IMG/VR virus record: IMGVR_UViG_3300031631_000002
Span: 1-61,221 of that record
Length of the DNA stretch: 61,221 nucleotides
Origin: a virus
Taxonomy: Duplodnaviria > Caudoviricetes
Direction: 5' to 3' (one strand)
A program made the translations under genes and the position numbers. The notes beneath the pieces are model-generated. The model saw nothing but the letters and a program-made list of their open reading frames with translations. It made no database searches and was not told the origin of the DNA. Below are positions 19,899 through 40,100 of this stretch, piece after piece. How positions within the stretch are numbered: the stretch's first letter is position 1; each line of letters starts with the position of its first letter.

Positions 19899-21365
19899 TT
19901 ATTTTCCTGAGTTCTTTCCTGGTACTCCTGTAGGTGCATCACTTTGGGTATCTTTAGTATTTTGAGTGCTGTCTGATTTTCCTGATGCTGTGTCCACGCT
20001 AGTGTTTGAATAACTGTTGTTTTTTGTGTCTACTGGGCCAACGTCAAACATTGTCCCAGAAAGCGGTTTATACCCTACTGGAGGAAGAGTCCCTGTAAGT
20101 TCGATTGCTACTTCCTCGTCTGAACGTAAGCCAAGAGACAGCTCTTTTAAAAGTCTAGCCTGCCTCATTACAAAAAATGATTCTAATTCGATAGACGGCC
20201 TCAGATCGATGGCAGCAAATTCAAATTTAACATTCGCATCTTGCCCCATCAGTTTTATGGCTAAGGTGAATGCCCGGGAAAGCAGTATGTTCAACTCATT
20301 CTGAGCCGCAGTCATAGCTTTCAGGAACAGCAGTGACTCAGTACTCCCGTTTGCACTTGACTCCCCTCTGCCGATAATAGACGGAAGAATCTTAGCTCCG
20401 GAAGATAGCTGACCTGAAATTAATGACTGCAGGACTGCTATGCTTCTGTCTTCTGATCTGTTGGCATTGCTTATGTCTGAGGCTTTAATGGTGTCGAAAA
20501 GTACTAGTGAGCTTTCCGGGGATAAGGTCTCTAATTGCGCTTCAAGTGATGCCACAGTTTCTTTAGCTCTTTCAGCAAGTTTCTTAGTGTCGTTCTGATC
20601 TTCTAAGGATAGCGTCTTGACCCACGCTTCAGAATCAATAGTGATAGTGAGTCGTTGAAGGAGATTCTTTGTTGCAGCACGTCTCAACGTATCAGCAAAT
20701 TCAACATCCCACATGGAGGGCTGCAGTGCAGTTTGCAGGGGACTCTCTGCATACGGAGTATCGCCAGTCTGCTGAGTGGCCGAATAAAATATAGTTGGGT
20801 AGTTTAGATGAACTTCAGAATCTTGCTTTGTCTTATATACTGGATATGTCGTTGTTTTATTGTCAGCCCATTTAATCTGTGATGTGTCAACAGATTTAAT
20901 ATATGAAGGTAGTCTTGACTTATCTAACACTAACTCTGCCATCATCCCACCATACCTGAAGGAATCAAATAGAAGTGAGGCCGACAAGGAACGAATATCT
21001 GTTGATCTCGTAAACATCGTGTAGTCAGGAGATTCTCTATCCCAGTGAGCTGACAGCAATTGCGCAGCTTCTGTTCCTGGAACGGAGATCCTGCCTAAAG
21101 AGTCGTAAGCTACTACGGTATAATTTTTGGATATGGTTGTTGATATCTTTGTGGCTACTGCTTGGGATAGATCAGGAGAGACTCGACAAAGCCTAGCTAC
21201 TGCTTCACCCATATCTCTTGAGCTACGGGCGAAATTAGATCTGTCAAGTGATAATGTGTTCTGAGATGAATTTGTTACAAGAGCTGACTTAACACCACCA
21301 AGGTACGGTGGCGGAGCCTGCGCTCCTGGCTTTACTTTTATTTTAGCCTTCTCAGTTGTTGCCAT
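19899..21365 (-). CDS. Portal protein
   Basis: 488 aa, between terminase and protease. Confidence 0.8.
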   Translation of the reverse strand: MATTEKAKIKVKPGAQAPPPYLGGVKSALVTNSSQNTLSLDRSNFARSSRDMGEAVARLCRVSPDLSQAVATKISTTISKNYTVVAYDSLGRISVPGTEAAQLLSAHWDRESPDYTMFTRSTDIRSLSASLLFDSFRYGGMMAELVLDKSRLPSYIKSVDTSQIKWADNKTTTYPVYKTKQDSEVHLNYPTIFYSATQQTGDTPYAESPLQTALQPSMWDVEFADTLRRAATKNLLQRLTITIDSEAWVKTLSLEDQNDTKKLAERAKETVASLEAQLETLSPESSLVLFDTIKASDISNANRSEDRSIAVLQSLISGQLSSGAKILPSIIGRGESSANGSTESLLFLKAMTAAQNELNILLSRAFTLAIKLMGQDANVKFEFAAIDLRPSIELESFFVMRQARLLKELSLGLRSDEEVAIELTGTLPPVGYKPLSGTMFDVGPVDTKNNSYSNTSVDTASGKSDSTQNTKDTQSDAPTGVPGKNSGK

Positions 21366-21430: not shown

Positions 21431-23137
21431 TTAAACTTTGCTATTTTTTATATTATATACAGCCATTGGTGGGCCAGCAGCGAAAGTATTTTTAGACAGC
21501 AGCCTCGATGCCATGCTGCAGTAAAGGCTTGAGTGGTGAATATGATCCTCCGCCTTCCCGTTAGGCTTCATCCATCTGTAACTTACGAACTCGTCTTCAC
21601 TGCCTCTGTAATCCCTCTGCCTGGACATAACAGACAGTTGGTCAAGCACCAGGTTGTCCATTGAAGATGCCTTGTACGCTATGAGCCCATTTACTACCTG
21701 GTCTGCGAAGTAATCAAAGGCTGGAGTCATGTTGATGTTTATTATTTTAATGTTTCCTACTGCTTCATCTTCTTTTGACTTCAATGAGAACAACTCTAAC
21801 TTTTTCGCTGACTGTGATGAGTTTGCATAAACAGCTGCCCAGGTGTTTGGGACTGTGTTTACAAAGTGAGCTGTTAACTCTGTGTAAGGTAGTAGATCTA
21901 TAACTCCTGACACACACCTGTACTCCCTTAGGAGCTTTGGCAAATCTATTCGAATAGATTTAAGTGGTAGAAACTCCACCCGGTGAATGTATAATCTTCC
22001 TTCTATTATGGATCCAATGGTAAGGCATGAGTGCTTGCCGACATCCAGGCCAAATACGTTAAGTTGTCCGGCTTCGTGGTTCTCGAACTTCACTTGGGTT
22101 ATATCTAATGCGTTCTCACGGGCTGATATTGGTTCAGCCAAGAACTGACACTTGAACTCATTCCTGTCGTCCATTTTTACCATATCTGTGATCAGATCAG
22201 ATGGTTTAACGTAGTGAGGTAAGTCAAAAGGGCCTATTTTCATGCCACGTTTTGGTAGATTTGGAGACTCTGCTACGTTAACCCACTCAGTGTGAGGGTG
22301 GCCGAATGGTGTAGGTTTGTGGCATCTTGGGCACTCTAAGTAGGATTTTGACACGTCAAGCTCTAGGTTAGTTATTTTACTGAGTGTCAGTGCCTGAAGT
22401 GGGTCGTTGTAACCCGGCAACTTAACATTCTCCCAGAAGTTTGGGAAAAATTCGTGATTGCACCGCTCACATTTCAGTATAGCCTGCCAGATGTGACCGC
22501 ACTTCTGAATTTCCAAATCTATATCTGAGTCTTTAAATCTTGGTGAGCTGAAGTATATGGTGGATTTGTGTTCCTGATGACGTTGACGAGCTGCCATGCT
22601 GGAGAGTGTCTTCATTGAGATGTATTGCAGTTCGTCAGCAACTATACATCGAAGAGGTCTTGAGATTGTTGTTGATTTTGACGTTCCGGACCCTGACAAA
22701 CCAAATATACAGGAGCCGTTTATGAGCCGCTTAAGTGATGCTGAGTCCACCTTCCTATCTTTCATGGCCTTAAGTGTAGGAGACCCGTCGATTATACTAG
22801 CTAGGCGTATTTTGAAGGTTTCAGAGGTCTGAGTTAGAGACGGCATCACAAGAGCAGCTGAAAAACCAGGTATCGTGGCGGCGTAAGCCATTAATACGCG
22901 GTATATAATCTCACTGGCTCCAGCTTGTGCTACTTTATGGCATACAAACTGCACGTCTGGATCTACCAACTCTTCCATCATCTTTAATTGATACTCATGG
23001 TGAAGAGTTGTGAAGGGTCTACCAAGTAAGAAGGTTTCCTCGGTTACAAATTTCTTTATCACGTCTTTCTGTGGTCTGATTGCAGTAGTTATTCTAGATA
23101 AAGATTGTTTTAATATTGGATTATCCGAGCAGTTCAT
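21431..23137 (-). CDS. terL: Terminase large subunit (lambda gpA-like)
   Basis: Walker A-like KVAQAGASE, Walker B IVADE, CxxC...CxxC zinc motif, nuclease motif FGLDVG. Confidence 0.9.
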   Translation of the reverse strand: MNCSDNPILKQSLSRITTAIRPQKDVIKKFVTEETFLLGRPFTTLHHEYQLKMMEELVDPDVQFVCHKVAQAGASEIIYRVLMAYAATIPGFSAALVMPSLTQTSETFKIRLASIIDGSPTLKAMKDRKVDSASLKRLINGSCIFGLSGSGTSKSTTISRPLRCIVADELQYISMKTLSSMAARQRHQEHKSTIYFSSPRFKDSDIDLEIQKCGHIWQAILKCERCNHEFFPNFWENVKLPGYNDPLQALTLSKITNLELDVSKSYLECPRCHKPTPFGHPHTEWVNVAESPNLPKRGMKIGPFDLPHYVKPSDLITDMVKMDDRNEFKCQFLAEPISARENALDITQVKFENHEAGQLNVFGLDVGKHSCLTIGSIIEGRLYIHRVEFLPLKSIRIDLPKLLREYRCVSGVIDLLPYTELTAHFVNTVPNTWAAVYANSSQSAKKLELFSLKSKEDEAVGNIKIININMTPAFDYFADQVVNGLIAYKASSMDNLVLDQLSVMSRQRDYRGSEDEFVSYRWMKPNGKAEDHIHHSSLYCSMASRLLSKNTFAAGPPMAVYNIKNSKV

Positions 23138-23402
23138 TCAACTTTTCCGTGAATATGTGGTATTTATCTGAGGGAAATATCTCTTTTGCCGCCTCTATTA
23201 GGGCTTGTTCTGTCTTTAGGATCAATTCCATATTTATTACTTCTGCTTGTGTTTTGGTAAGCTCTTTTATTATTGCAGTCAGCGCTGTCATTGCTGAAGC
23301 ACGGGAGCTGAAGGACTCATCTTGATCTTTAGATGCTTGCTCAGCAAGTCCCTCTATCCTAGTGAAATGAGCTGTTATCTCTTTGTTTAGGTCTATTTGC
23401 AT
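23121..23402 (-). CDS. Terminase small subunit (putative)
   Basis: Helical 93 aa overlapping the terL start. Confidence 0.55.
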   Translation of the reverse strand: MQIDLNKEITAHFTRIEGLAEQASKDQDESFSSRASAMTALTAIIKELTKTQAEVINMELILKTEQALIEAAKEIFPSDKYHIFTEKLNELLG

Positions 23403-23626
23403 CGATGGATGTAACTCCTGGAGGATTTAACGGTCATTGCATTTATCTCGGCTAAGACTGCTAGGACTTCTGAGGTAACTTGATTCCCACCCCTGTGAAG
23501 TGCCATGTGCAGGTTGTTAGTTAGCTGAGATAGGTCGCCTAGCATTTCGTTAGTGTTTCTGTATTTCCCATCTCTGTGGGTTAAGTTCTTGAATTCCTCG
23601 TCTGAGAGGTTATTTGGTATTTGCAT
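23393..23626 (-). CDS. Hypothetical protein
   Basis: Overlaps both neighbours in the same operon. Confidence 0.5.
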   Translation of the reverse strand: MQIPNNLSDEEFKNLTHRDGKYRNTNEMLGDLSQLTNNLHMALHRGGNQVTSEVLAVLAEINAMTVKSSRSYIHRCK

Positions 23627-23768
23627 TTGGGTATTCCTTGTCGATAGCTCTGCGAATAAGTTCTGACACAGTTAGACCTGTTGATGCTGAGATTGATCTT
23701 AATCTTTCTCGTTGAGGCGGTGTTATCGTCACCCCTACCTTAATTACTTTTAGTTTTGTACGTTTCAT
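23610..23768 (-). CDS. Ribbon-helix-helix regulator, 52 aa (not in ORF track)
   Basis: MKRTKLKVIKVGVTITPPQRERLRSISASTGLTVSELIRRAIDKEYPNANTK, CopG-like G.TVSELIRRAI; TTGACA-16-TGTAAT just upstream with almost no leader. Confidence 0.8.
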   Translation of the reverse strand: MKRTKLKVIKVGVTITPPQRERLRSISASTGLTVSELIRRAIDKEYPNANTK

Positions 23769-24223
23769 ATTGGTAGTATTACAGTACGGAATACCTCTTT
23801 GTCAATATCTTTTTGGAAAATATTTCTGGAATACCTCTTTACAGTTTGGTATCTGAGTCGAACAGTGCTCTAATGAGGGCCTGGTTCCATAAGTACCACA
23901 AAGCGGTACCCGTCAACCGTAAACTTTGTTTACGCCAGTGTAAACTTTGTTACCGTCAACGTTGTTCACACTTTAAGCGTTTCACTTTTTCGTCTCAAAA
24001 CATTTATAACGTAATGGCACGGTAATTGTTGCAAGCTATTATCATGTAATACCTAACACATTGATAGAGTGTAAAAATTTTTACGCGCTGGCGATGCAGA
24101 TTGAAGCAATCAAATCTTCATTATGATGAATAAAAGTAGTGCAATATTTGGCAAGGCATGTTAATATTGCATTGTTCCATTTAGATTAGATAAGATTTAT
24201 TCAACTTCACAAAGGCGGACCCA

Positions 24224-24319
24224 ATGCAAGAATTCTTTTCTCAGTCAATTTATGTAGCACTACTTGGAATTAATATATGTGTGTATTCTATAGTGTTAGC
24301 TATCATAAGCACTATATAA
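24224..24319 (+). CDS. 31-aa single-TM peptide (putative)
   Basis: MQEFFSQSIYVALLGINICVYSIVLAIISTI; weak RBS AAAGGCGG. Confidence 0.4.
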   Translation: MQEFFSQSIYVALLGINICVYSIVLAIISTI

Positions 24320-24340
24320 CAGCTAAACAGGAGACGCACA

Positions 24341-24478
24341 ATGTACGCATATAAAAATCTTTATTCTGCTATTGCAGAAGCTTACCAACAAGGCGCCATA
24401 TCCACGCGCCTTTCGGGGTGGATAAATCTAGACGTCTGCACGTGCGGTGCGCCCACTCACGTGGGTTGTTGTTGGTAG
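24341..24478 (+). CDS. 45-aa Cys-rich microprotein
   Basis: AGGAG RBS; MYAYKNLYSAIAEAYQQGAISTRLSGWINLDVCTCGAPTHVGCCW. Confidence 0.55.
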   Translation: MYAYKNLYSAIAEAYQQGAISTRLSGWINLDVCTCGAPTHVGCCW

Positions 24479-24926
24479 TCAAGCTTTAAAGCCGACTAAC
24501 TTTTGATAGTCGGTTGATCTTCTCTACATGCTAGATTATAAGCAAACGGAATTACAGCTCTGTGACAAGGGTATCACCCTTGTGATTCTTATAACTCCCA
24601 TATCTAGCCTTCACGCTTGTCGTGGTCACATAAAATAGTTGAACGGCTAGTTAGTAAGTAGTCAAGCAAGATACTTACTGGTTAGATCATCAAGATACCA
24701 CATTGTTTTAACCTTCAGTAATTTCAAATTTGCAGGCATTAACACAAAGAAAAAGCGCACTTATCCCTTCTCTTTCCCTTGTGCCTGTACCTCTTTCACA
24801 TAACATTTATTTTCTCATTATCTTGGTAGAATAAAGCCCGACTATTTTCGTGATAATTATTCTGTTTATTTTCTTTTTCTTGTTCTTTTTCCTAGTTAAT
24901 AAAAAATTTTTCTTGGAGAAATAAAA

Positions 24927-25577
24927 ATGTCAAACAATCAATTTAGTAAAGCAGTAGAAAGTTTTAAAACTTATTCCCTCACAACCGCTAATTTTTTCTC
25001 TTCATGCCGCCGACAGGGTATGACTAGAAAAGATTATGAAACGTGGTCGGTGCAAGAGTTGTGTGCTATGTCAGACGTTATAAAGGAGTACGCGTTTAAA
25101 AAAGACGGTTCGGTCAAAACCGTCTCTGCCGTCTGGAAAAACTTTACTCCCGCTAAAAATAAGGCGGACCGCGGTACATTAGACTGGTCTATAGCTTTCG
25201 CGAATAGCAGTATGGTAGGTTATTCAAACTATCTGAAAGCAAACGGCCTTGATCCAAAAACTTGTAAAGCGGCACCTGTATTATTGTATCCAGTACTTGA
25301 GGCCGTTGTTAACGAGGCCGCTGTGAACGAGGCCGCTGTGAACGAGGCCGCTGTGAACGAGGCCGCTGTGAACGAGGCCACCGTGAACGAGGCCGCTGTG
25401 AACGAGGCCGCTGTGAACGAGCTAACAAGCTTAAAAGAACAGGTAATGGGTAAAGAAGAGCATTTCTTGACCGTACAAAAAGCGGTACTTGCTATCATAT
25501 CGGGAGTCAACGAGAAGAAGACAAAAGCTCAATTGCTCGAAGCAATCAATGAGATTGAAAAAATCGTTAATTGTTAA
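24927..25577 (+). CDS. Orphan protein with (EAAVN)8 linker and C-terminal helical domain
   Basis: GGAGAAATAAAAATG RBS, 216 aa, no family recognised. Confidence 0.85.
   Translation: MSNNQFSKAVESFKTYSLTTANFFSSCRRQGMTRKDYETWSVQELCAMSDVIKEYAFKKDGSVKTVSAVWKNFTPAKNKADRGTLDWSIAFANSSMVGYSNYLKANGLDPKTCKAAPVLLYPVLEAVVNEAAVNEAAVNEAAVNEAAVNEATVNEAAVNEAAVNELTSLKEQVMGKEEHFLTVQKAVLAIISGVNEKKTKAQLLEAINEIEKIVNC
25299..25421 (+). repeat. 15-bp coding tandem repeat, 8 copies
   Basis: Unit GAGGCCGCTGTGAAC, with two variant copies. Confidence 0.95.
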
Positions 25578-25594
25578 TACTAACTATAGTAAAA

Positions 25595-25841
25595 ATTCAA
25601 GTTACTAATTTTAGTAACTTGAATAGCCGGACAAAGAACAAGAAAAAGAAAATAAACGATTTTACTAAAATTTAGTAAAAATAACCGTTAAGCGATTAGT
25701 TCAGAATCGTTAACGGAATTTTTGCGTTTACTGGATTTTAGTAAGTTTTCAGAATTTACTAAAATTTAGTAAAATTTGCTAGTATCCACGCCTTGATTGG
25801 AAAGGATAACCAGCAATTACATTTTACTAAATTTTAGTAAA
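25595..25841. repeat. Cluster of five TTACT(A/G)(A/G)-N-TTAGTAA palindromes
   Basis: 25595-25624, 25660-25680, 25728-25744, 25755-25773, 25823-25841; a sixth copy at 31988-32004. Confidence 0.9.
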
Positions 25842-26152
25842 CGATATTACGTAATTCACTTGTGAGTGAATGTATCGGAAAATGAAATAAACAGAATATG
25901 CTAAAATGATTGGGTAATATTTTGGGTTAACAAAACTGAAATACTTGGAATGTTGAGCCGTAAGAATGTTTTCTATGAAAATGTTTGAGGCATGTCACTC
26001 GATCTAGCGAAAAGAACCAGCCTAGCAAGCTGGTTCTGATTTGCCAGCACAATTGCGTGGTGGCAAATTGGAACCAACTAACTTTTACTCTCTCCAGAGA
26101 GTAAACATTTAAAGAAGTGATGTCAAGAATCCTAAACTATAAAAGGAGAATG

Positions 26153-26521
26153 ATGATGACAAAATTCTTAGCAGTATGCAAAACAATAAGAAAGAACGAG
26201 AAATTCAAACGTGCCGCATTAGTAAGTAGCATGGACGGCCTACAGGACGCCCTGTGTGTCCCTTACAAAGAAGGCGTGAATTTGTATGCCTTAGTATGCC
26301 TTCATCCGTTTGAAGGCGTGAGCGGACAGCAATGGGCAGCAAGACACCTATTTGGCGGCGGATCGTCGGCAATGAAGAAATTGACAAAATTTGAAGTGGA
26401 AATAACGCCAATAATTGTGAAAGAGGAATCACGCTCGATAAGAGCAGAATTTGAGCGTTCATGCGATCCTAGGATGATCGGCTTGGGAAGTAAAGAAACA
26501 AGACTATGTAATATCTTATAA
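26153..26521 (+). CDS. Hypothetical early protein
   Basis: AAAGGAG RBS before ATGATGATG. Confidence 0.7.
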   Translation: MMTKFLAVCKTIRKNEKFKRAALVSSMDGLQDALCVPYKEGVNLYALVCLHPFEGVSGQQWAARHLFGGGSSAMKKLTKFEVEITPIIVKEESRSIRAEFERSCDPRMIGLGSKETRLCNIL

Positions 26522-26533
26522 AGGAGAAAACGT

Positions 26534-26656
26534 ATGGAAATAACATTTGAGTATTATTGTGTGCTGAGATCACACTCATGGAGCCGTCACAAAGCATATG
26601 CAAAGAGAAACAAGAGAACACATTACCCGTTCTTCTCCTATTACTTATCGACCTAA
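26534..26656 (+). CDS. 40-aa basic microprotein
   Basis: AAGGAG RBS; MEITFEYYCVLRSHSWSRHKAYAKRNKRTHYPFFSYYLST. Confidence 0.55.
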   Translation: MEITFEYYCVLRSHSWSRHKAYAKRNKRTHYPFFSYYLST

Positions 26657-26831
26657 CTTTTTACTCTCTCTGGAGAGTAAACTTTAATAAAGACAATGTA
26701 AAGTAGAAAATACATTAATTTCAGAAACAAGCCCTAACAAATTAACCTAGCAAATCACTATCCAACAATTACAGTTAGTTAGAAATAATTCTAACTAGTA
26801 TCACCACCTAACACACTCAAGGAGAAATAAA

Positions 26832-26930
26832 ATGTCACTAGAAGATGTAATCCGGGAAGTTCAAAAAGAAATTGATGAAGAATTCAACTGGGATCTTGAA
26901 CCTGAAACCGAACTTGACTTCGAATCTTAA
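26832..26930 (+). CDS. 32-aa very acidic microprotein
   Basis: AAGGAGAAATAAAATG RBS; MSLEDVIREVQKEIDEEFNWDLEPETELDFES; followed by hairpin AACAGCCGATTA...TAATCGGCTGTT. Confidence 0.65.
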   Translation: MSLEDVIREVQKEIDEEFNWDLEPETELDFES

Positions 26931-27142
26931 ACAAAACAGCCGATTAAACCCACCTAATCGGCTGTTCACGAGGAAAACTATGAAATGTCTTGCCCTAGTA
27001 TACTGGATCGTTTTATTTGCTGTAGCAGGCCAATTTGACTACAACGAGGAAATAGAATGCGAAACGCAATCAGAATTGCAATCGAATCTCCAACCTACTG
27101 GCTTTTCAAGCCAACAATCCGCTTGGAAATAGTAAAGCACAT

Positions 27143-27505
27143 CTACTCAGGAATAAAAAATCTTCCGTTAGATTCCCGTTTATATTCAATAAAAGGAAGT
27201 TTACTAACCTTATCATAGAAATGATTTCTAGTCTCAGCCTCAAGATCATTTTCCAAGCAATATCCTTGATATTTAAAATATGCTTCAGATCTAAGAACTT
27301 TGTTCTGAAACGTCTGCATGATGTAAACTATAACTGAAACTGGTTTATGCTTTATTTCTGATTTCAGTATCTCTGAGTAGCACCTGATACTTATGTTTGC
27401 AGCTTTAGAAGTAACACTCATTTTACCAGCATCATCAACAGCCAATTTATGATAGTGATCGCCCATGTCTTTCAGCTTGTCTAAAACTTCATCTCGATAT
27501 TCCAT
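27143..27505 (-). CDS. Stand-alone paralogue of the primase C-terminal winged-helix domain
   Basis: KVLRSEAYFKYQGYCLENDLEAETRNHFYDKV...KRESNGRFF aligns by eye with primase KVLRTGMWDKYKEFCIDGSMEQVSRNEFYNKV...RKEDGRYF. Confidence 0.7.
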   Translation of the reverse strand: MEYRDEVLDKLKDMGDHYHKLAVDDAGKMSVTSKAANISIRCYSEILKSEIKHKPVSVIVYIMQTFQNKVLRSEAYFKYQGYCLENDLEAETRNHFYDKVSKLPFIEYKRESNGRFFIPE

Positions 27506-27569
27506 GTAATTTCCTTTAGTTACAAATTAAAATTCACTCCCAGCCGAGTTAGGCTACCCTAATGCCAAG

Positions 27570-27862
27570 TGGCTGACACTTTCCGGCACTTTCCTGACAG
27601 TGGGATAACCAATGTCAGTATGTCTAAGATCCAGATTCCTGACACTTTTTACAAACAATCCTCCTATAGAAAAATTTTTTCAAGGGGTATGCGACAAACA
27701 GTCCGATAACGGCAAAAACAACCGTTTCACTACAATGTGGTATCTTTTTAAAAAATATTTTTCATATAATAGTATTTAGTAATAAAGTGTCAGGATTCTG
27801 GATCTTAACCATACTACCATTAACTATCCAACTGTCAGGAAAGTGTCGGAAAGTGTCAGCCA
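27570..27862. repeat. 79-bp imperfect inverted repeat, candidate replication origin
   Basis: Arms 27570-27648 and 27784-27862 match at 69/79 by manual count; internal (T/C)GACACTTT-like units; 135-bp AT-rich spacer; just downstream of the primase-helicase gene. Confidence 0.8.
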
Positions 27863-27909
27863 AGGGCTTTGTCAGCAAAGTGTCAGGACTCTCTAACACA
27901 TGGAGCAAC

Positions 27910-30573
27910 TTAAATCTCCAAACAGATCCCATTAAAGTACCTCCCATCTTCCTTACGTTCTGCGAACACATTATTGACCTCTTCAACCTTATTATAAAAC
28001 TCGTTTCTTGATACTTGCTCCATGCTACCATCAATACAAAACTCTTTATATTTATCCCACATCCCTGTCCTTAGAACTTTCATACCGTGACCAATTCTAC
28101 ACTTATCAAGTATGAACGTTTCAACTGAGTCTACAGACTGAGCCCAAGACCGAAACAATTCTCCACTATGTGCATCAACCGACTTGTTTTCAATCCACAT
28201 CTTAACACCGTTTATCAGCCAAGCAAGAACTCCAGGTAATTCATGAGCAATTATCCCTACCTCCATCCCATCTATAACTTCATTGTGGTTATGTTGAAAT
28301 TCAACTATAAACCCAGACAAACGTCTTTCAATCTCACTAGAGAATGAATCCAACCTAGGCCAAGCATTCATACTAACAACAAAACTACAGGGACACTCAA
28401 ACTCAACCGTATCCCTGAATAAATTCCTTCCGGACATCAAGTCCCGACCTGTAGCCATTTTGAATCCGGCCGTGTTCACTGGCTTATCATTTCTACCTGT
28501 GTTTTTCTTAACCTCCGGAATGAAATTAATAACTGAGTCCTTCAAACCAATAACCCGCTCCAAAACATTAAGCATACCAAAACTCAAAGCAGTAACGCGA
28601 CCTCTGGGTAGGATGCTCAACATGATTCTTTGTAGAGTTCCTTTACCAACTCCACCTGGACCCTTCATTACAATAGCCTGTTGGAGATCAGTAAGGCTTC
28701 CACACATAGCCAACCCAAGTCCTTTTTGCAGACATTCAACATTAACCACATTATGTAATAACTGATCAAACATTGGAGTTTTCATTTCAAAATCAGGTTC
28801 GAAGGTCAATTTGAATCTGGCCCCTAAATCCTTATCATATGGAATACTATCAACAGAAGGTTTGTCACCTACAACCTCTGTCCTCCAGAAGCTATTAGAA
28901 CATGGGAAGCCGTGAGAGCCTCTCCACGCGTCAACTTTATTTCCAGCGGTAGCTAGGGTGTGTTTTACTACTTGAGCATACTGAGAGCCGGTACGGCACA
29001 GCTTGACCCCTTCATACTTAGTGCCGACAGCCTTTAATAAGATTCCATTATCCTTTTTATTCCAGATAGTCTTATCAAAAGCATACATTTCACCGCCAAA
29101 AACTCTGTAGTCTTTAAACCCTTTAAGTATATCAACAGATAAACGATGGTGGGTTGACTCTGGATTAATTGTGTTAGCATCATCTTCCTCTTTTATATCT
29201 TCAGCTCTGGAAACAACAGCATCCTTTAAATCCAAACGTATGTCTGTTTTAGTGAGGTCTAATTTATCAGCTATCCTACCAGCCAGCTTACTTTCAGAGG
29301 CCTTGCTGAGTTCAGTCTTAAGTAAAAACTCCTCATACCAATCCTCAATCTCATCTCTGGGAGAGTCCTTAATCCACTGTAACAGGTCAGTAGGGTCGAA
29401 CTTAAGCTCATAAACTTCGCCGCCGTGAGCAAATGAATTAAGTATGGTACGGTCGTCATTAACAAATATCTTACACTTACCTGCACCGTATTCTGGCTCT
29501 AAAGGAGGGCGGAAACCTCCTACCTCGTTCCAGTCATCACCGTTGAGCAGGACGTCAAGAACACTAACTTCACTCATGTCATCCTTAATAAGAAAGTCAG
29601 TGCTGAGTAAAACTCCAGCCCTTCTACTTTTGACAGTTCTCTTTGCAATAGATCGTTTAACTCCCTTAGCGGTCAGTCCGTCAATACTAAGAGCATCGTA
29701 GTCTTTCTTTACCTTCTGTACTTCAGGAGAGCTCTTGAGGTCATTCAAATAGTCCTTAACCTCGTAGTCATACGCCTCTTTAATGCCGAGCTCGTCAAAC
29801 CTAGACACAGCCAACTCAGCATCCAGAACTCCTCCAGGGACGTACTCACAGCCGCGAGGAATTGTAGAGTAATCACCCTCAACAGTGCAGTCAGATTCAA
29901 AAACCAAACGCTCTGGTGTTTTGACAGCTTCATCAACAACTGTTCTAGCGAGTACATTACCAGATCTTGTGACCATATGACTCTTGAATCTTAACCAAGC
30001 AAGCTTAAATAAGTATTCGATAACAAGCTTGTCAGCGTTTCTTACTGGGAAGAATATGTGGAGGCCGTTACTAGACTTCTTACCTTCAGGATTTAGGACT
30101 CCTGCTGAAGATGATTCTCTAATCCATCTGCATAAGGTATTCCTTGACTCGCCGTCCTTTCCTATTATGCATCCTGAAAGAACTTCTTCTGTGTAGTCTA
30201 TAAATTGCCCAACCTCTTCCTCGCTCCATTCCCCATGGGCAGAGCCACCATCAACATCAAGGTACATAAGACTTACTGAGTCTGAGTTGCAGTATTTAAA
30301 ATACTCCTTAGTGCGGGATATGATTCCGTTTTCTATATCTTCTCTTCCTTTGAGTCTTATCTTAAATTCATCAAGGCCACTAACTCCAAGGACTAGTGCC
30401 TTTGATGGTTGAGCTCCTAGAGAGGTTATATAATCAGACACATCAGTGATCGGGATGTTTACTGTTCTTCCAGTAGCCCCATAAACAGCCGCCTGAGCTT
30501 TCTTACCCGACTCGCTAACACATTTATTTATAGGTCCATTATCATTAGTAATTTCACTTATAATTATATTCAT
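27910..30573 (-). CDS. Primase-helicase (primase-like N-terminus plus D5/P4-family SF3 helicase)
   Basis: YLDVDG and GLHIFF primase motifs; Walker A GPGGVGKGT; FKMATGRD; C-terminal winged-helix-like domain. Start taken at MNIII, overlapping the HTH gene stop. Confidence 0.88.
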   Translation of the reverse strand: MNIIISEITNDNGPINKCVSESGKKAQAAVYGATGRTVNIPITDVSDYITSLGAQPSKALVLGVSGLDEFKIRLKGREDIENGIISRTKEYFKYCNSDSVSLMYLDVDGGSAHGEWSEEEVGQFIDYTEEVLSGCIIGKDGESRNTLCRWIRESSSAGVLNPEGKKSSNGLHIFFPVRNADKLVIEYLFKLAWLRFKSHMVTRSGNVLARTVVDEAVKTPERLVFESDCTVEGDYSTIPRGCEYVPGGVLDAELAVSRFDELGIKEAYDYEVKDYLNDLKSSPEVQKVKKDYDALSIDGLTAKGVKRSIAKRTVKSRRAGVLLSTDFLIKDDMSEVSVLDVLLNGDDWNEVGGFRPPLEPEYGAGKCKIFVNDDRTILNSFAHGGEVYELKFDPTDLLQWIKDSPRDEIEDWYEEFLLKTELSKASESKLAGRIADKLDLTKTDIRLDLKDAVVSRAEDIKEEDDANTINPESTHHRLSVDILKGFKDYRVFGGEMYAFDKTIWNKKDNGILLKAVGTKYEGVKLCRTGSQYAQVVKHTLATAGNKVDAWRGSHGFPCSNSFWRTEVVGDKPSVDSIPYDKDLGARFKLTFEPDFEMKTPMFDQLLHNVVNVECLQKGLGLAMCGSLTDLQQAIVMKGPGGVGKGTLQRIMLSILPRGRVTALSFGMLNVLERVIGLKDSVINFIPEVKKNTGRNDKPVNTAGFKMATGRDLMSGRNLFRDTVEFECPCSFVVSMNAWPRLDSFSSEIERRLSGFIVEFQHNHNEVIDGMEVGIIAHELPGVLAWLINGVKMWIENKSVDAHSGELFRSWAQSVDSVETFILDKCRIGHGMKVLRTGMWDKYKEFCIDGSMEQVSRNEFYNKVEEVNNVFAERKEDGRYFNGICLEI

Positions 30574-30770
30574 CAACAATCTCCCCAAAGCAATTCTGGG
30601 TAGTCAACAATGCCAAAAGTCTTCGAGACAATTATGTGAGCGTTCCTTAAAGTGACGCACTTTATATTTTCCTTGCAGATGTTGTAAGTTGTAGCTCTTG
30701 AGATTCCTAAATACTCTGACAATTGGTCGTAATTTAACTTCTTGTTTTTGCGGTAAGTTTCAAGCTTCAT
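30573..30770 (-). CDS. Cro/XRE-like helix-turn-helix regulator
   Basis: LETYRKNKKLNYDQLSEYLGISRATTYNI. Confidence 0.85.
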   Translation of the reverse strand: MKLETYRKNKKLNYDQLSEYLGISRATTYNICKENIKCVTLRNAHIIVSKTFGIVDYPELLWGDC

Positions 30771-30802
30771 GGTCACCTCTGTTTTATATATAGAATATTT
30801 TG

Positions 30803-30843
30803 TTGACTTCTGTGAACCTACAAGGTAGTTTAGCTGAAGTCAA
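30803..30843. promoter_or_regulatory. Overlapping divergent sigma70 promoters
   Basis: Plus TTGACT(30803)-17-TAGTTT; minus TTGACT(30843-30838)-17-TAGGTT; located at the strand switch. Confidence 0.7.
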
Positions 30844-31653
30844 GTGTAAATGTTGAATATGCAGCAAACCATTCGTCAACGAATGGAAAACTAAAAGGAG
30901 AGCAAAATGAGAATGGAAATGAAGTGCGTGAAATGTGGCGGAGATGACCTCTCAGTAGAGGACACTTCAGTAGAGTACGTTGAGCATAAAGAGGCCTTAG
31001 GAAGTGTGGTAGCTGTGTATCAAGACTCCTCATTCAAAGCAGCTCACATAGAGCCAAAGGATACCTTCTTTGCTGGTGAAGAAGGCACCCACATACTAGT
31101 AAACTTAACTTGTTACTCTTGTGGCGCTGAGATGACTCTGTATGTGTCAGCACCAACTGGTTATGGGGTGGAGGTTGGGCTAGATTAATCGTCTATTGCT
31201 CAACTTATTTCGTGAGGTTGGCTGAGATGGTGGCGGAAGAGTGCGAGGCATCCGTTGAGAGCCTCGACTTACTTTCTCAGATGCTGCAGGACATCCAACA
31301 CAAATTAGAGGGTACTGATTTTCAAGCTGAATCTGAATTAGCTTCAGAGAACATTAAGAAGTTGAACGCTTTAACAAAACTATTCGTAGGCGAATAGAAA
31401 GGAGAACAAAATGGACGTAAATATATCAGAGACGAGATTAGTAAAGAGAGGAAATAAGAATCTGTTCAATAAGCACTTGTTTATGTCTGGTGATAGGGAA
31501 GAAATCTACAGCGGGGACATAATTGAGTTTAATATCGCAGATGAAGTATATCCCTACTCTGGTACCGTCTCAACATTGCAAGGACTAAGAGTAGAGTGTT
31601 TTAACACGATTTTAAACCAATGGGTGTATCATAACTTGGTAGCATAATTAACG

Positions 31654-32281
31654 TTCACCCAGGTTGCTGGGAAACAAGGCAAAATAAATGAAAAGGAGAA
31701 ACAAAATGAAAACTTACATCACGGTAGAGTGTCCAGAGCAGGATAATATACACAGGTTCATATTGAATGCTGTGTCTTTACAGTCAGGGCGGTTGAGAGT
31801 AGACAGAGCGTTTATGAAGTTTGGTATCGAACCAATGGTTATTACATCTGACTTGCGTCCTGATTGGCACTTTAATAAATACGGAGTCCTCCATACTGTA
31901 ACTATAAATAACAAGTATGAACTACGTGGCAACATGCACACAAAGGCATTCTACTAGATTTAGAATATTAACGTTCACCCAGATCTTTTACTAAATTTTA
32001 GTAATCTTCAAAGGAGAATCAAAATGGCATTTCAAACACATTCAGAACCATGTGGTTTCAACCCACACTATAGGCAGGGGTTCGGTGAAGAAGTATCACG
32101 AAAGTATGCCTTACTGTGTAAAAATAACAGAGGGCTTACGAGAGCTCTCAGGAAGAGAGCTTATAGAGTTATAGCAGACTTAATCGAAGACGATTTCCCA
32201 ACAACCGTACAGCTTGGTACGTTTCACCCAGGTTGCTGGGAAACAAGGCAAAATAAATGAAAAGGAGAATCAAAATGAAAA
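31654..32281 (+). repeat. 59-bp direct repeat (31654-31712 and 32223-32281)
   Basis: TTCACCCAGGTTGCTGGGAAACAAGGCAAAATAAATGAAAAGGAGAA(A/T)CAAAATGAAAA, one mismatch. Confidence 0.95.
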
Positions 32282-32574
32282 TTAAATTAGCTTTAATTAT
32301 CCTACTTATGGCCTCGACAGTACAAGCAGGCACCCCAGAAGAGGCATGTAAATCCTACCATGAGTTAGCAACTTCATTAATGGACGCCAGACAGTCAGGA
32401 GTATCACTAGTAAAAGCTATGAGCATAACAGATCGCAAATTCCTGCAGGACTTAACTATCAAGGCATACAAGCAGCCAAGATACAGCATGGAAGAAAATA
32501 AAAAGCGAACTACAGAGGATTTTGCTAACAGAATATATCTGGAATGCTACGAAGCGCTCTCAAAGGAGAAATAA
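32275..32574 (+). CDS. Exported small helical protein with signal peptide
   Basis: MKIKLALIILLMASTVQA signal; C...MDARQSGV...EC pattern. Confidence 0.65.
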   Translation: MKIKLALIILLMASTVQAGTPEEACKSYHELATSLMDARQSGVSLVKAMSITDRKFLQDLTIKAYKQPRYSMEENKKRTTEDFANRIYLECYEALSKEK

Positions 32575-34387
32575 AAATGCTGATGTTCATAATACTGGCA
32601 GCAATATCAATCTCAGATATTCAAGAAGCTGTAACAACGCAGGATGTTCAAGTTGAAATAACACAGGAGTAACAAATGTATAAAGAAGGAATGACAGTAA
32701 AGGAAGCAGCAGACATGAAGGGACTTAACTCTTACGACACGGCTCTACCTCAGGCATGGGTGGATACAGTGTGTAAAGTACTTCCTGATAACTTGAGCAA
32801 TCTAATGGGTAACGTAGTCTGGTGTTATCGATGGGAGGCCGTCGATTTCGACGACATTTGGGGACGACCTGTAGCAATATCTCCCCATGGTGAGTTGATT
32901 ATAGGCTGGTTAGCCGCGGCACTCAAATAGGAGAAATGAAGATGAAATTGTACACAATCACAGCACATAAATTCGATTTTATAGTATTCGCTGAGACTCA
33001 CCACGAGTTTAAAGAGTTGATGCAAAAAGCATGGAGAATACACCTTGAGGAACACAATATGCAACCCTTCGAATTAGCTCTTGATTGCATGAAAGGGGCA
33101 GGGGTAGAGGTTGGTAAAGGGGTACTCCGTAACGGATCCTACATGAACTTAGAGCCTGACAATAGAGAGTACTTCATATGCAAAGTGAGTGGCGTCACTA
33201 GCACAGAGGACTTCAGTTACTTCAGTGTAAATAATGGTTTTTCAGATGGTGACGTAGAGAATGTGAGAGAACTACATGTTCCAGAGTCCCTGAGTATAGC
33301 CGAAGGCTTAACAATCGTGAGGATAAGATAATGAATGAAATAAGACGTTACAGAGAAACTGAGTCGAGAATCAAAAGGTTGAAAGAGATAATCAAAGACG
33401 GCAACTATAAAGTAGAGGGCCTGTCTGTTGGCATATCAGTGGGAGCTGTTGGGGAAGATTACTGTAACGAACTCGATTGCCAGATAACTGACGAAAACCA
33501 CTCAGAGCAGATACTTAGTCATTTAGTAGATGGCCTTGAAAAGTCTCTTGAGTTTAAATTGCAGATGATGATTAACACTCACAGAACCCTCGGAGAATTC
33601 TTAAACGGAGAAATAAAATGACAAGATGGGATGATGAAGGATTACTCGAAGTAGTTGAGATGGTGGCAGAAAATGAGGCAATGATATCCTCAGAAGAAGA
33701 ATTATCTGAGAATTTCGACAACATGTTAGAAGATATAAACTGTTGTCCGGAGAGGCTTACTGAAACCGACGTCAACTGCATGTTCAACGACTGGAAGGAC
33801 GGAGAAGCAAAAGACGGAAACATCCACCAAATCCAAGACAATCAATACTGCTACGTAGGAAAATACGGAGAGTGATATGAAAATATACGGAATAATGTCA
33901 GCCGAGTTCTCACAGACAAAAAGAGGTAAGAAAGTCTCTAACGGCAGCTTCAAACTTGGTCAACAGGTTAGGATAGAAGATGTAGTGAGGGACAACTGCA
34001 GTTGTGTTGAAGTAACACCAACTGAAGCCGGAAGCTACGTCAGTTTCATCGACTACGGAACAGCAGAAGGATTCAAAAACAGTTACTGTGAGGGGTGATA
34101 TGAAACTGAATACTAAAGTAACCGCGAGTTATGCCGGAAAGCCATGTGGGGAATACACAGTATCACTGCACGCATCAGAAAGTGGTAACCTACTTAGGAT
34201 TACCCCAACAGAAGGAACGGCCGGACATTGGCAATGGTACCTGGCTACACTAATGGGGTTAGGAGACTACAGCAGCGGACCACCCTCTGACGTGCTGGCT
34301 CTAGACTTTGGGATGCGTTGGGAAGTATCCGGGATGATAAATGTTTACAAAGAGATTTTAGACCTCATAAAGGTAGAGGAGTAAATA

Positions 34388-37198: not shown

Positions 37199-40100
37199 AA
37201 ATGTTAGAACCTTACTGCAGTATATGTCATAAGCCAATGGATTTCGAAGAGGCTCCAATAGTAGCAGGAACGAACGGCCCTATGATAATAGTAGAGCCTT
37301 GCTGCTGCCCAGAAGAGGAAGAGGAAGTCCTAGACTTCCTAAAGACAGTAGATACTGATTCCGAAGAAGATCTCGAGGACGGCCTCAACTATCTGAGCAG
37401 AGTTAAGAGAGACCTTAATAAATTTATGGATTTAGTAGGGGAGACAGATAACAAAGAGCTGCACGACAGAGCTGATGAGTTGCTAGTGTTTGAAATGGAG
37501 TTTGATGAAATTGAGAGGATCCTGCGTAAAACTAATAAAGTAATGGCTGAGTTAGAGGGTTTAAGAGAAGAGCTCATAACTGAACATAAATTCTAAGGAG
37601 ATATTTAAAATGACAAAAAATTACGGAATAGAAGGTACTGTACTACACGATGACGACCCATTGGATCCTACAGTAGAGTATGATTCTCTTGGAACCATGA
37701 TATGCAACCACAGCAGGTACAACCTTGGGCACGTCCAAGGAAACCCTGCTGACCACCTACAAAAAGGAGATATTGTACTACCTCTGTATCTAATGGATCA
37801 CAGCGGTCTCTCAATATCAACGAAACCATTCTCCTGTGCGTGGGACTCCGGGAGACTCGGTGTAATTTATGTCACCCAAGAAGACCTGAAGAAAGAAGGA
37901 ATGTCGAAAGAACAGGCGTTACTATGCATGGAAGGAGAGGTAGAGACGTACAACGACTATCTTACAGGTAATTGCTTTGGCTACGTGATAGAAGATGCTG
38001 ACGGGGAGATACTGGATACGTGTTGGGATTTCTTAGGGGGTGAGGAGCACTGTGAGTCTGAGATGAACATTTCCTTAAACTACTATATAAAGAAGAGAAA
38101 GGTAGAGATCGAAGCCCGGGATTTGAAATACACCGTAGACGACTGGATCCATGAAGTATTGAGCCACTCCACAATTCTTGGACTTGAGGAATGGAGACAG
38201 CACATAGAGGAGAGCAATGAAGGTTAAAATAGATCCGAGAGACTTTAACATAAATGTTATTGAGGTGTTAAGCAAACTCTCTGAGAATTGGCTGGCAATA
38301 AAGAAAGAGTTGAGCCGCACCAAGGCATTTTGGGAGGGGAACGATAGGTGGCACGCTATGTACGGGCTTGACTTTCATTACGACGACGGGAAAGTGTTTG
38401 CCTACAGAGTTTATGCAAACTCAATAGGTCTTGAGGGCACAGATACTCAGACAGAAGTTGAAATAGTAAAGGAGAATTGAGATGGAAGGAGATTGGGACC
38501 ACGTTGGAAGATACTGCTATGACCTGCTGTGTGATAAGTGTGGATATACTTGGTATAAAGACTCAGACCGGATTTACCAAGTTGGTAAAGCGTTTATATG
38601 CCCAAACTGTGACAGCAGAGAAACCAGAGTTACTGTTGCAACTGACTTATTGGAGGGAGAGAGATGAAACGTGACTTTATAAGAGAGGTATACGAACTCT
38701 TGAGAGATCGGGACATTCACCCATCCGGAGCATTCGATAACGCAGGCCGCTGGTATGCAAAGAATTCCAATCTGATATCAGTTAGGACTCCATCAAGGAG
38801 ATTCCCATATTCGGAGTTGACAGCCTGCCGCACATTAAAATACGTTAAAGCTGTTGTGGCAGAATTCAAATGTAAATCTTATAAAACTCTACTGAGGTCT
38901 GTGTGATGAAAATTCAAGAAGGAAAAGTAGTATTGATCCAACTGGACACTAGGACCTCATTGGATGGGTTGCTTCACGCAGGAGACTGTTACACTAGGGC
39001 TGACTCATATGATGACCTTATTATCGACGTTGACATCATGGACGGTAGTGATGAGCTTCAGAAGGCGTTTAAGGAGGCAACAGGGCTGGAGTTCTCAACC
39101 GTATCTGAATACCAATACATAGTATGCTGGAGTTAGTATGAGATACACAAAATACGAATCGTGGGAAGCTAAGAGGATAACAGTAAAGGAAGCCCTGGAA
39201 AATTGGGAAGCCTACGAGGATAAACTATTTATATTTAACGCTGATGACGATCCTTGGCCGTTTAACTATGCCTACTTGGAGTCGCTGAACAAAAATAAGA
39301 AGCTATACGTACTGTCTTTCTTGGACGAGAACAGTAAACTGGAGGAGTGACATGGTTAATATACTTTTGAAAAATATATGGCTGCCATCACCTATCTACT
39401 ACAGCCTCCCTTGGGTATGCCTGATTCTAGCCATGCCTTACTTGGCTCTAGGTAGGGGGTGGTTGATAATCGCAGGATTTTTAGTTGTGTATGGGATGGC
39501 AATAATCCATCAAAGACTTAAATGGAGATGATGATGGCAACTTTAGTAATTGAGAACGTGGACTTCGAAGAGTTGGAGAGGCATAGACTGATATTAATAC
39601 AGGTACATCATGACCTACCTGACGGTCCTGAGAGGGAAGCCGTACTTGGAATACAGAATATGCTGGATGACTGGAGTGACAAAATTTACTTTGAGGAGAA
39701 TGAAAATGGGAAATAAAATAACATCTCCGAATGAGCTAAGGGCTGTGTTACTGTCAACAATGGAGGGAATTATAGAAGGTAAAGTGTCAGTGTCACAAGG
39801 TAACGCTATTGCATCTATATCACAGGAAGTCCACAAGAGCATCAGGCAGGAGTGGGATATGAGATGTTTTGCTGCTGAGAATTTATCAATAGCTGACGGT
39901 AAAATAGTTAACGTACTGTTGGAGGGGGATGCATGCACGTCTTAGATAGATTGAGATGTAAGGTACTGTATGGGATGCCCCACGATGAGGCATTAGAGAT
40001 GAGGAGGCAAGGATTTTATAGCTGGCCGGTTGGTAGTGTATCTTCTTCTATAAGGTCAGTAGCAAGTAGATTTTTACGGAGGTACGGAGACAGGCTGAAA

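Follow-up and report, generated by a model that had tools for sequence, protein, structure and literature searches.

The repressors of temperate phages act at clustered dyad-symmetric operators, of which lambda OR and OL are the type. Inverted repeats also serve in RNA: the sponges CsrB and RsmZ consist of several hairpins that display a conserved loop motif, and for regulators of the Aca2 type one inverted repeat is a target in two forms, as DNA in a promoter and as a stem-loop in the mRNA close to the ribosome-binding site (RBS). A further class of repeats, the PeSLs of T4-type phages, is described in two papers as repeated units of a sigma70 promoter and a stem-loop terminator, which flank ORFan cassettes and recombine (PMC2839356; PMC4122927). 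The locus analysed here is an array of short hairpin-forming repeats at 25595-25880 of IMGVR_UViG_3300031631_000002 (Duplodnaviria; Caudoviricetes), an entire IMG/VR virus record of 61,221 bases with an estimated completeness of 75%, hereafter called the window. An earlier note, made from the sequence letters, had proposed three functions for the array: a protein-binding scaffold or sponge RNA, a processed small-RNA array, or an operator cluster. The data below lean to the operator cluster and are less favourable to a sponge RNA, and nothing in them supports small-RNA processing.

The conserved unit was found to be a 19-bp A/T-only dyad, TTTACTAAAWTTTAGTAAA, which is longer than the TTACTAA/TTAGTAA core noticed originally. 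The pattern TTACTAA-N(1-8)-TTAGTAA matched five times in the 61,221 bases (25602, 25662, 25756, 25824, and 31988), against a chance expectation of 0.01 obtained by shuffling, and none of 100 shuffled sequences reached five matches. A search of the window with the 19-bp dyad, allowing three mismatches or fewer, likewise gave five matches against 0.03 expected; those at 25661, 25755, and 25823 were exact, while those at 25727 and 31987 had three mismatches and one mismatch, respectively. There are thus six sites in all, namely five array copies and a distal copy at 31987, and these counts bear out the earlier description of five copies in about 250 bp with a sixth upstream of an RBS at 31988. 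TTACTAA and TTAGTAA are invariant in five of the six sites, and three of these do not differ at any of the 19 nt. Five sites share a dyad of 17 to 19 bp with a 3-nt centre, the centre of copy 1 being 2 nt. At the central position, copies 2 and 4 carry A, and copies 3 and 5 and the distal copy carry T. Free half-sites were not enriched: the window contains 23 TTAGTAA words, 11 of which lie in the six sites, and the other 12 compare with 11.2 expected.

Copy 1 (25595-25624) is a 13-bp stem enclosing the 16-nt form TTACTAATTTTAGTAA at 25602-25617. Copy 2 (25661-25679) is an exact dyad with arms extendable to 10 bp, copy 3 (25727-25745) is the degenerate form TTTACTGGATTTTAGTAAG with three mismatches, and copies 4 (25755-25773) and 5 (25823-25841) are again exact. 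The distal copy (31987-32005), TTTACTAAATTTTAGTAAT, lies 4 nt upstream of the RBS-like sequence AAAGGAGAA at 32010, which precedes the open reading frame (ORF) 32024-32260. A degenerate mini-palindrome, TACTAACTATAGTA, was also read from the sequence at 25578-25591, directly after the stop codon of ORF 24927-25577. The centre-to-centre spacing of the array copies is 60.5, 66, 28, and 68 bp (66, 28, and 68 bp from start to start for the later copies). Because the spacing is irregular, the array is not CRISPR-like, as the earlier note had also held; the would-be spacers in these intervals of 28 to 68 bp are themselves hairpins. An Rfam scan of 23000-33000 gave no match at E<=1, so no CRISPR direct-repeat family was matched.

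The conservation of the array was assessed in one relative, L006 from IMG/VR, which is 91-99% identical to the window over 21450-33933 and was the sole relative found by IMG/VR protein scans with both flanking ORFs and with the primase alignment. All six sites are retained in L006. In bins of 100 nt, the identity to L006 was 96-99% at 25700-26099 versus 76-89% at 25000-25299 and 25500-25599, and the array is better conserved than the upstream ORF 24927-25577 outside the repeat tract of that ORF. Copy 2 is identical in L006, and the only change in the mini-palindrome (25585 T>A) falls in its loop. Window DNA was present in 17 sequencing runs from marine and salt-lake metagenomes; none of the runs listed was of RNA, which speaks neither for nor against transcription. 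Two overlapping contigs of run X2 showed no differences over 25417-26445, run X4 showed none over 25582-25937, and the sole array difference in run X3 was the central base of copy 5, which is T in the window and A in both L006 and run X3. A metagenome scan returned four distant loci (32-36% identity), none of which extended to the array side and none of which contained a palindrome with arms of at least 8 bp and a loop of at most 5 nt.

From these data, the array is tentatively read as a cluster of double-stranded DNA operator sites in a control region dense in promoters and terminators, an interpretation that we prefer to each alternative considered below while placing it just short of probable. 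The letters of the arms are conserved beyond what mere pairing would call for, and this favours a DNA site. The central base flips between copies and between genomes and therefore fits an orientation-free dyad and no conserved RNA loop. A sigma70-like promoter candidate, TTCAGA-16-TAAAAT, was located on the plus strand at 25748-25775 (9 of 12 matches). In its register with copy 4, TTCAGA is followed by one base and then by the dyad, which forms the spacer and, through its end, the -10 hexamer TAAAAT. The sites, their nonrandom number, their conservation, and this promoter-like geometry are direct observations.

We infer from them protein binding and repression, as well as the kind of binder and which promoter is real, in the following scheme. 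The dyads would be the sites of a sequence-specific dimeric DNA-binding protein, packed in the control region of a variable accessory-gene block. The candidate promoter at copy 4 would read rightward through a structured leader to ORF 26153-26521, and occupation of copy 4 would shut that promoter off. Roles as auxiliary or cooperative sites, or as roadblocks, may fall to copies 2, 3, and 5 (and perhaps to copy 1), and through the distal copy the regulator would also control ORF 32024-32260. The unique hairpins between the copies, the long stem of copy 1, and a 29-nt repeat described below would have roles at the RNA level, in the termination or processing of flanking transcripts.

The resemblance to lambda OR and OL lies in the clustering of near-palindromes of 17 to 19 bp and graded perfection, at least one of which lies over the spacer and -10 hexamer of a candidate sigma70-type promoter. 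The array differs in that its five sites extend over 240 bp at spacings of 28 to 68 bp and have terminator-like hairpins between them, in a gap devoid of ORFs. It also differs in that no repressor gene adjoins the array and the window shows no integrase; none was seen in the window gene annotation.

A second set of data bearing on the operator interpretation came from a pair scan of IMG/VR, with the half-site and then the full site, which covered 2.9 million contigs and returned 11 loci. Two of these are the provirus L122 and L109, a record that has direct terminal repeats. Each carries three sites that flank a single small gene and span about 500 bp (2534-3029 in L122 and approximately 2470-2967 in L109). 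In both, the exact TTTACTAAATTTTAGTAAT 19-mer occupies the 16-nt spacer of a sigma70-like promoter, TTGACG-16-TAATAC, which closely follows a strong terminator, and a second, imperfect site lies 34 bp upstream of the 19-mer. The third site spans the spacer and -10 hexamer of TTGAAA-17-TAGTAT, in front of a gene of 95-98 aa, a relative of which is named by its source as uncultured Desulfovibrio. Since the surrounding DNA is 51% G+C, three A/T-only dyads are unlikely to be an effect of composition. This set thus has the same 19 letters as the distal copy and the same promoter-spacer register as copy 4; unlike the window array, it belongs to an unrelated phage with unrelated proteins and 51% G+C, and its three sites flank a candidate regulator gene and have no interleaved hairpins. 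The match is taken as evidence that the dyad letters can act as a promoter-embedded operator, and not as evidence of kinship. By sequence, the provirus dyads and the small gene together look like a new candidate regulator-operator pair. The provirus protein gave a helix-turn-helix-like impression, which was not confirmed by its profile, as no PDB match was better than E 0.18.

Of the other loci from the pair scan, nine of the 11 apparently represent an unrelated family with 10-bp tandem arrays of the TATTTAGTAA type, as judged from the four of the nine that were inspected. This very AT-rich phage family (L023, 10500-10600; L040, 2710-2850; L050, 5090-5200; L064, 40-150) carries 8 to 14 tandem 10-bp units of both orientations, TATTTAGTAA or TATTTACTAA; the sequence adjoining them downstream is conserved, and the arrays look like helically phased iterons. 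Single dyads are more widely distributed. A 17-mer scan of viral contigs gave at least 115 loci, mostly single sites in AT-rich contigs, and an 18-mer scan of species genomes gave at least 120 loci with one site each in many phyla. Among the species-genome loci listed, the only blastn match to the window was of 35 nt, none matched L122, and no host regulon emerged. A literature text search for two 17-mers found no paper. Sequences in the array that resemble DnaA boxes or the sites of other host factors were at chance level by eye and were dropped.

Several findings weigh against operators. By our own inspection, only one of the five array copies (copy 4) has credible -35 and -10 hexamers, and the region shows no enrichment in promoter-like sites (22 versus 21.2 expected). 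The site spacing is not helically phased. The distal copy substitutes for a GC hairpin of the RNA type shortly before an RBS-like sequence. Copy 1 has a different half-site spacing, and the compensatory double change in its flanking stem in L006 argues for a hairpin rather than a double-stranded DNA site. All five of the wobble-making changes discussed below place G on the plus strand. The provirus match could be convergence or chance, given the 2.9 million contigs scanned. In the window there is no homologue of the provirus gene: a tblastn search gave none at E<=0.01, the best hmmsearch value against 747 six-frame window ORFs was E 3, and an hhalign comparison with the RHH protein of the window was not significant (E 0.05, probability 1%). 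The provirus protein was also without a recognisable DNA-binding family, in keeping with the PDB search above.

Finally, no binder was found in the window. The recognisable DNA-binding proteins are an RHH protein (23610-23768) and an HTH_26 protein (30573-30776), which lie 1.8 and 4.8 kb off, respectively, and are unlinked to the motif. Both ORFs adjoining the array are ORFans. Neither ORF 24927-25577 nor ORF 26153-26521 had a Pfam, PHROGs, or NCBIfam match, the ESM Atlas returned unnamed viral clusters only (<=0.87), and the AlphaFold models were poor, with predicted local distance difference test (pLDDT) values of 47.0 and 37.9. A protein search with ORF 26153-26521 returned three proteins, one of which was that of the window itself.

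The strand-specific data bear on a different interpretation, which we regard as possible and rather unlikely. In this alternative, the gap would be transcribed rightward as a structured leader or noncoding RNA, its AU hairpins would be protein-docking elements (scaffold or sponge) or processing and stability elements, and the distal copy would be a translational operator. The position of the gap between two plus-strand genes with strong RBS-like sequences is consistent with this, as is the pattern of substitution. There are 14 substitutions between the window and L006 in 25590-25885, of which nine are at unpaired positions, four are mutually compensating, and one leaves a G.U pair. On the plus strand, none of the 80 predicted pairs was broken, compared with a mean of 4.9 for random placement (P ~0.001; 20,000 permutations); when the sequence was read as the minus strand, four pairs were broken in L006 and three in the window. 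The structure on which the permutations were run came from the window itself, however, and avoidance of stems by substitutions is equally expected at protein-binding DNA sites, which would also be spared. In copy 1, L006 has an AG>GA / CT>TC double change in the outer stem, outside the shared motif, which fits an RNA stem, together with a TT>AA change in the centre; the four stem changes may represent one template-switch event in a quasi-palindrome.

The wobble pairs were considered in the same context. The earlier note had argued that the variant copy TTTACTGGATTTTAGTAAG, which is present at 25727-25745 as described, keeps pairing only as G-U on the plus-strand transcript and so favours function as RNA. 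Copy 3 does fold better on the plus strand than on the minus strand (-3.0 versus -1.3 kcal/mol), and two further plus-strand G changes in L006 add a little to the argument: an extra A>G at 25740 in copy 3 and an A>G at 25637 in the 29-nt inverted repeat, both of which leave G.U on the plus strand. With the three changes in the window copy 3, five of five wobble changes place G on the plus strand, which in a simple one-sided coin toss corresponds to about 1 in 32. The argument nevertheless stays weak. Contrary to it, in one provirus a site in a predicted promoter spacer has an A-to-G difference at the same inner half-site position, and that site lies upstream of the predicted transcript.

Other properties of the hairpins speak against an RNA function. 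The core dyad hairpins are weak as RNA, at roughly -3 to -5 kcal/mol (-3.0 to -4.9 kcal/mol, the lowest value being that of copy 2), and the region as a whole folds about equally on both strands (z -10.4 and -8.7). The stem sequence is invariant between copies, which would be needless in a structure-only element, and the loop letter varies among copies and genomes. Moreover, the first unique hairpin, which is terminator-like, would lie midway in the supposed RNA, and the Rfam scan gave no match. In having several irregularly spaced copies of one short hairpin in a noncoding stretch, the array is like CsrB and RsmZ; unlike in those RNAs, it is the stem that is conserved, and a conserved loop was not found. 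On the side of RNA, the distal dyad stands, in the third of three paralogous spacers, in place of a GC hairpin and at the same distance before the RBS-like sequence as that hairpin has in the other two.

A combination of DNA and RNA binding was also considered. Here, the gap would give rise to an RNA of about 300 nt with multiple hairpins, the five AU hairpins of which would titrate a protein that also binds the dyad DNA at copy 4 and the RNA stem by the RBS of ORF 32024, so that the phage would time a dual DNA/RNA-binding regulator by means of a decoy array. We consider this improbable. As with the targets of Aca2, members of one palindrome family are found at two kinds of place, copy 4 within a promoter-like sequence and the distal copy shortly before an RBS. 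No Aca-like gene was identified next to copy 4 or the distal copy, and Aca2-type dual binding in this phage is pure speculation on our part.

The elements interleaved with the dyads were examined as well. The earlier note had pointed to three unique segments that fold; all three do fold locally, and the third is not above the shuffled background. Hairpin 1 (25685-25723) pairs over 12 bp with a single bulge and is preceded by an A-run and followed by AATTTTTG; its folding energy (25685-25716) is -11.8 kcal/mol on the plus strand and -10.9 on the minus strand. Because of the A-run before it, the T-run after it, and the folding on both strands, it looks like a bidirectional intrinsic terminator. 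It was not listed by the terminator scan, which, we would guess, probably missed it owing to the bulge. The two changes in L006 fall in the bulge (25692) and the loop (25702). Hairpin 2 (25778-25814; -11.3 kcal/mol on the plus strand and -13.1 on the minus strand) is identical in L006 and lies between copies 4 and 5, which, when extended by TAAAAT/ATTTTA, make up an inverted repeat of 21 nt without mismatch (100% complementary, 45 nt between the arms). Hairpin 3 (25843-25876; CGATA...TTCACT / AGTGAA...TATCG) is also identical in L006; its energy of -7.9 kcal/mol (z -1.3) was no better than that of shuffles, as 21 of 200 shuffled sequences folded equally well. The stem of copy 1 folds to -14.9 kcal/mol on the plus strand and -14.4 on the minus strand, and it scored as terminator-like on the minus strand in the scan (13 pairs), where it is followed by TTTTTAC.

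The wider neighbourhood contains further repeats. A 29-nt inverted repeat has a purine-rich right arm at 25629-25657 and a pyrimidine left arm at 24864-24892 (97% complementary); it brackets ORF 24927-25577 and copy 1, and on a plus-strand transcript its arms would be expected to form a long duplex. A 22-nt hairpin, TTTACTCTCTCCAGAGAGTAAA, occurs at 26084-26105 (-9.9 kcal/mol), and its TTTACT/AGTAAA ends are common with the main motif. The second copy of this hairpin (TTTACTCTCTC..GAGAGTAAA) is at 26660-26681, and the two copies flank ORF 26153-26521.

These repeats are relevant to another alternative, in which the dyads and hairpins would be PeSL-like boundary repeats that provide homology patches for gene shuffling, and the array would represent the scars of lost cassettes, with no dedicated binder. 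In related contigs, ORF 24927-25577 is swapped for other sequence, with divergence at 24889-24893 and 25560; related contigs part from the window exactly at the inner edge of the 29-nt inverted repeat. Contigs also break or join at 26083, 26529, and 26687, beside the TTTACTCTCTC hairpins; L006 has approximately 490 extra bases near 26460-26500, with the last 17 codons of the gene duplicated; and a 43-nt look-alike of copies 3-4 occurs in an otherwise different 2148-nt contig of runs X4 and X5. Assemblers also break at repeats, however, joints of less than 95% likeness are doubtful, and the look-alike is only 81% alike. No indel between the window and L006 ends within the main dyads, promoter hexamers accompany only the one array copy, and conservation is higher in the array than in its flanks, as would not be required of scars. 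With PeSLs, the array shares short repeats with a promoter-like part and stem-loops, in a variable ORFan region alongside which relatives diverge. As PeSLs are characterised in PMC2839356, with consensus sigma70 promoters and stems of G/C runs, they differ from the array, in which the repeat is an A/T-only perfect dyad and the units are stacked with no ORFs between them, and the window phage is not T4-type. It was concluded that the neighbourhood of the array appears, judging from the contig sequences, to be a cassette-swapping zone bounded by repeats, that an origin of the dyads themselves as boundary scars is quite unlikely, and that boundary repeats would in any case be compatible with operator function of the sites.

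Variation was also noted within ORF 24927-25577, where an in-frame 15-nt tandem repeat at 25299-25433 encodes approximately eight (A/V)(A/V/T)VNE units. L006 has only three units, and one run X2 contig skips 57 bases within this tract. As the number of repeat units varies, the protein appears to have a linker of variable length.

A last alternative is a replication origin, partition, or packaging site, at which an initiator, a centromere-binding protein, or a small terminase would bind the repeated dyads. In its favour, 25578-25900 is 27% G+C compared with 43.6% for the window and contains repeated 19-bp dyads and many hairpins. Near the array are the primase-helicase gene, at a distance of 2 kb, and the beginning of the terminase operon, at 1.8 kb. 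This possibility is considered very unlikely. The array is not adjacent to the terminase genes, no ParA/ParB-type gene was seen in the window, one copy of the dyad is found 6 kb from the array, ahead of an early gene, and a more canonical iteron structure is present at 27570-27900, directly 3' of the primase-helicase gene. There, a very AT-rich core is surrounded by seven copies of AAAGTGTCAGG (two or fewer mismatches; two leftward and five rightward), among which are the only three exact copies that the window contains. A 79-nt inverted repeat built from AAAGTGTCAGG (27570-27648 / 27784-27862) is 87% complementary. By its sequence, 27570-27900 has a classical iteron-type layout and is probably a better origin candidate than the array.

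The gene layout places the array in a 540-nt gap (25578-26116) between ORF 24927-25577 and ORF 26153-26521, both on the plus strand. The gap contains no ORF of 40 aa or more and none preceded by an RBS-like sequence, and no tRNA was found. The structural genes, including the terminase large subunit (21431-23137) and the portal (19899-21365), are on the minus strand from 23768 down to 1, and the primase-helicase gene (27910-30588) is also on the minus strand. A rightward block from 30907 encodes an SNF2 helicase, a family-A DNA polymerase, SbcCD-like proteins, a ligase, and a deoxynucleoside monophosphate (dNMP) kinase. Among deposited phages, the terminase gave matches of 22-25% identity, mostly to Vibrio and Pseudoalteromonas phages of approximately 78-85 kb, and the primase gave 22-24% at best; closer primase relatives exist in P0002 (75% identity) and P0003 (71%), and P0047 is a further relative, at 59%. 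Megablast of 24900-26600 against deposited phages gave no match. The source phage is a novel uncultured marine siphophage without a cultured relative.

Three further repeats were observed in the window. A 59-nt intergenic repeat, with copies at 31654-31712 and 32223-32281 that are 98% identical and a partial copy at 31967-31982, carries the hairpin CCCAG-GTTG-CTGGG ahead of an RBS-like sequence; this is the GC hairpin whose place the distal dyad takes in the third paralogous spacer. The 6-nt head, 5-bp GC stem, and 8-nt tail of this repeat recall what we take to be the form of a type I-F CRISPR repeat, and there was no Rfam match. A perfect palindrome, CCATTCGTCAACGAATGG, at 30869-30886, immediately precedes the RBS-like sequence belonging to the first of the rightward early genes and lies beside the divergent HTH_26 gene. 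Another perfect palindrome, TTTACCAAGTTGGTAAA, at 38573-38589, has TTTAC/GTAAA ends in common with the main motif.

The significance of the locus depends on which interpretation holds. A six-site regulon with one perfect 19-bp dyad offers a concrete handle, as one oligonucleotide could capture the regulator. If the sites are operators, they would form an unusually dense cluster in a gene-free spacer, and the same letters in unrelated proviruses raise the question of whether recognition is convergent or shared. If the RNA interpretation is true, the array would be a rare phage-encoded multi-hairpin decoy RNA. For this group of phages, the candidate iteron-type origin and the swapping of repeat-bounded cassettes help with annotation.

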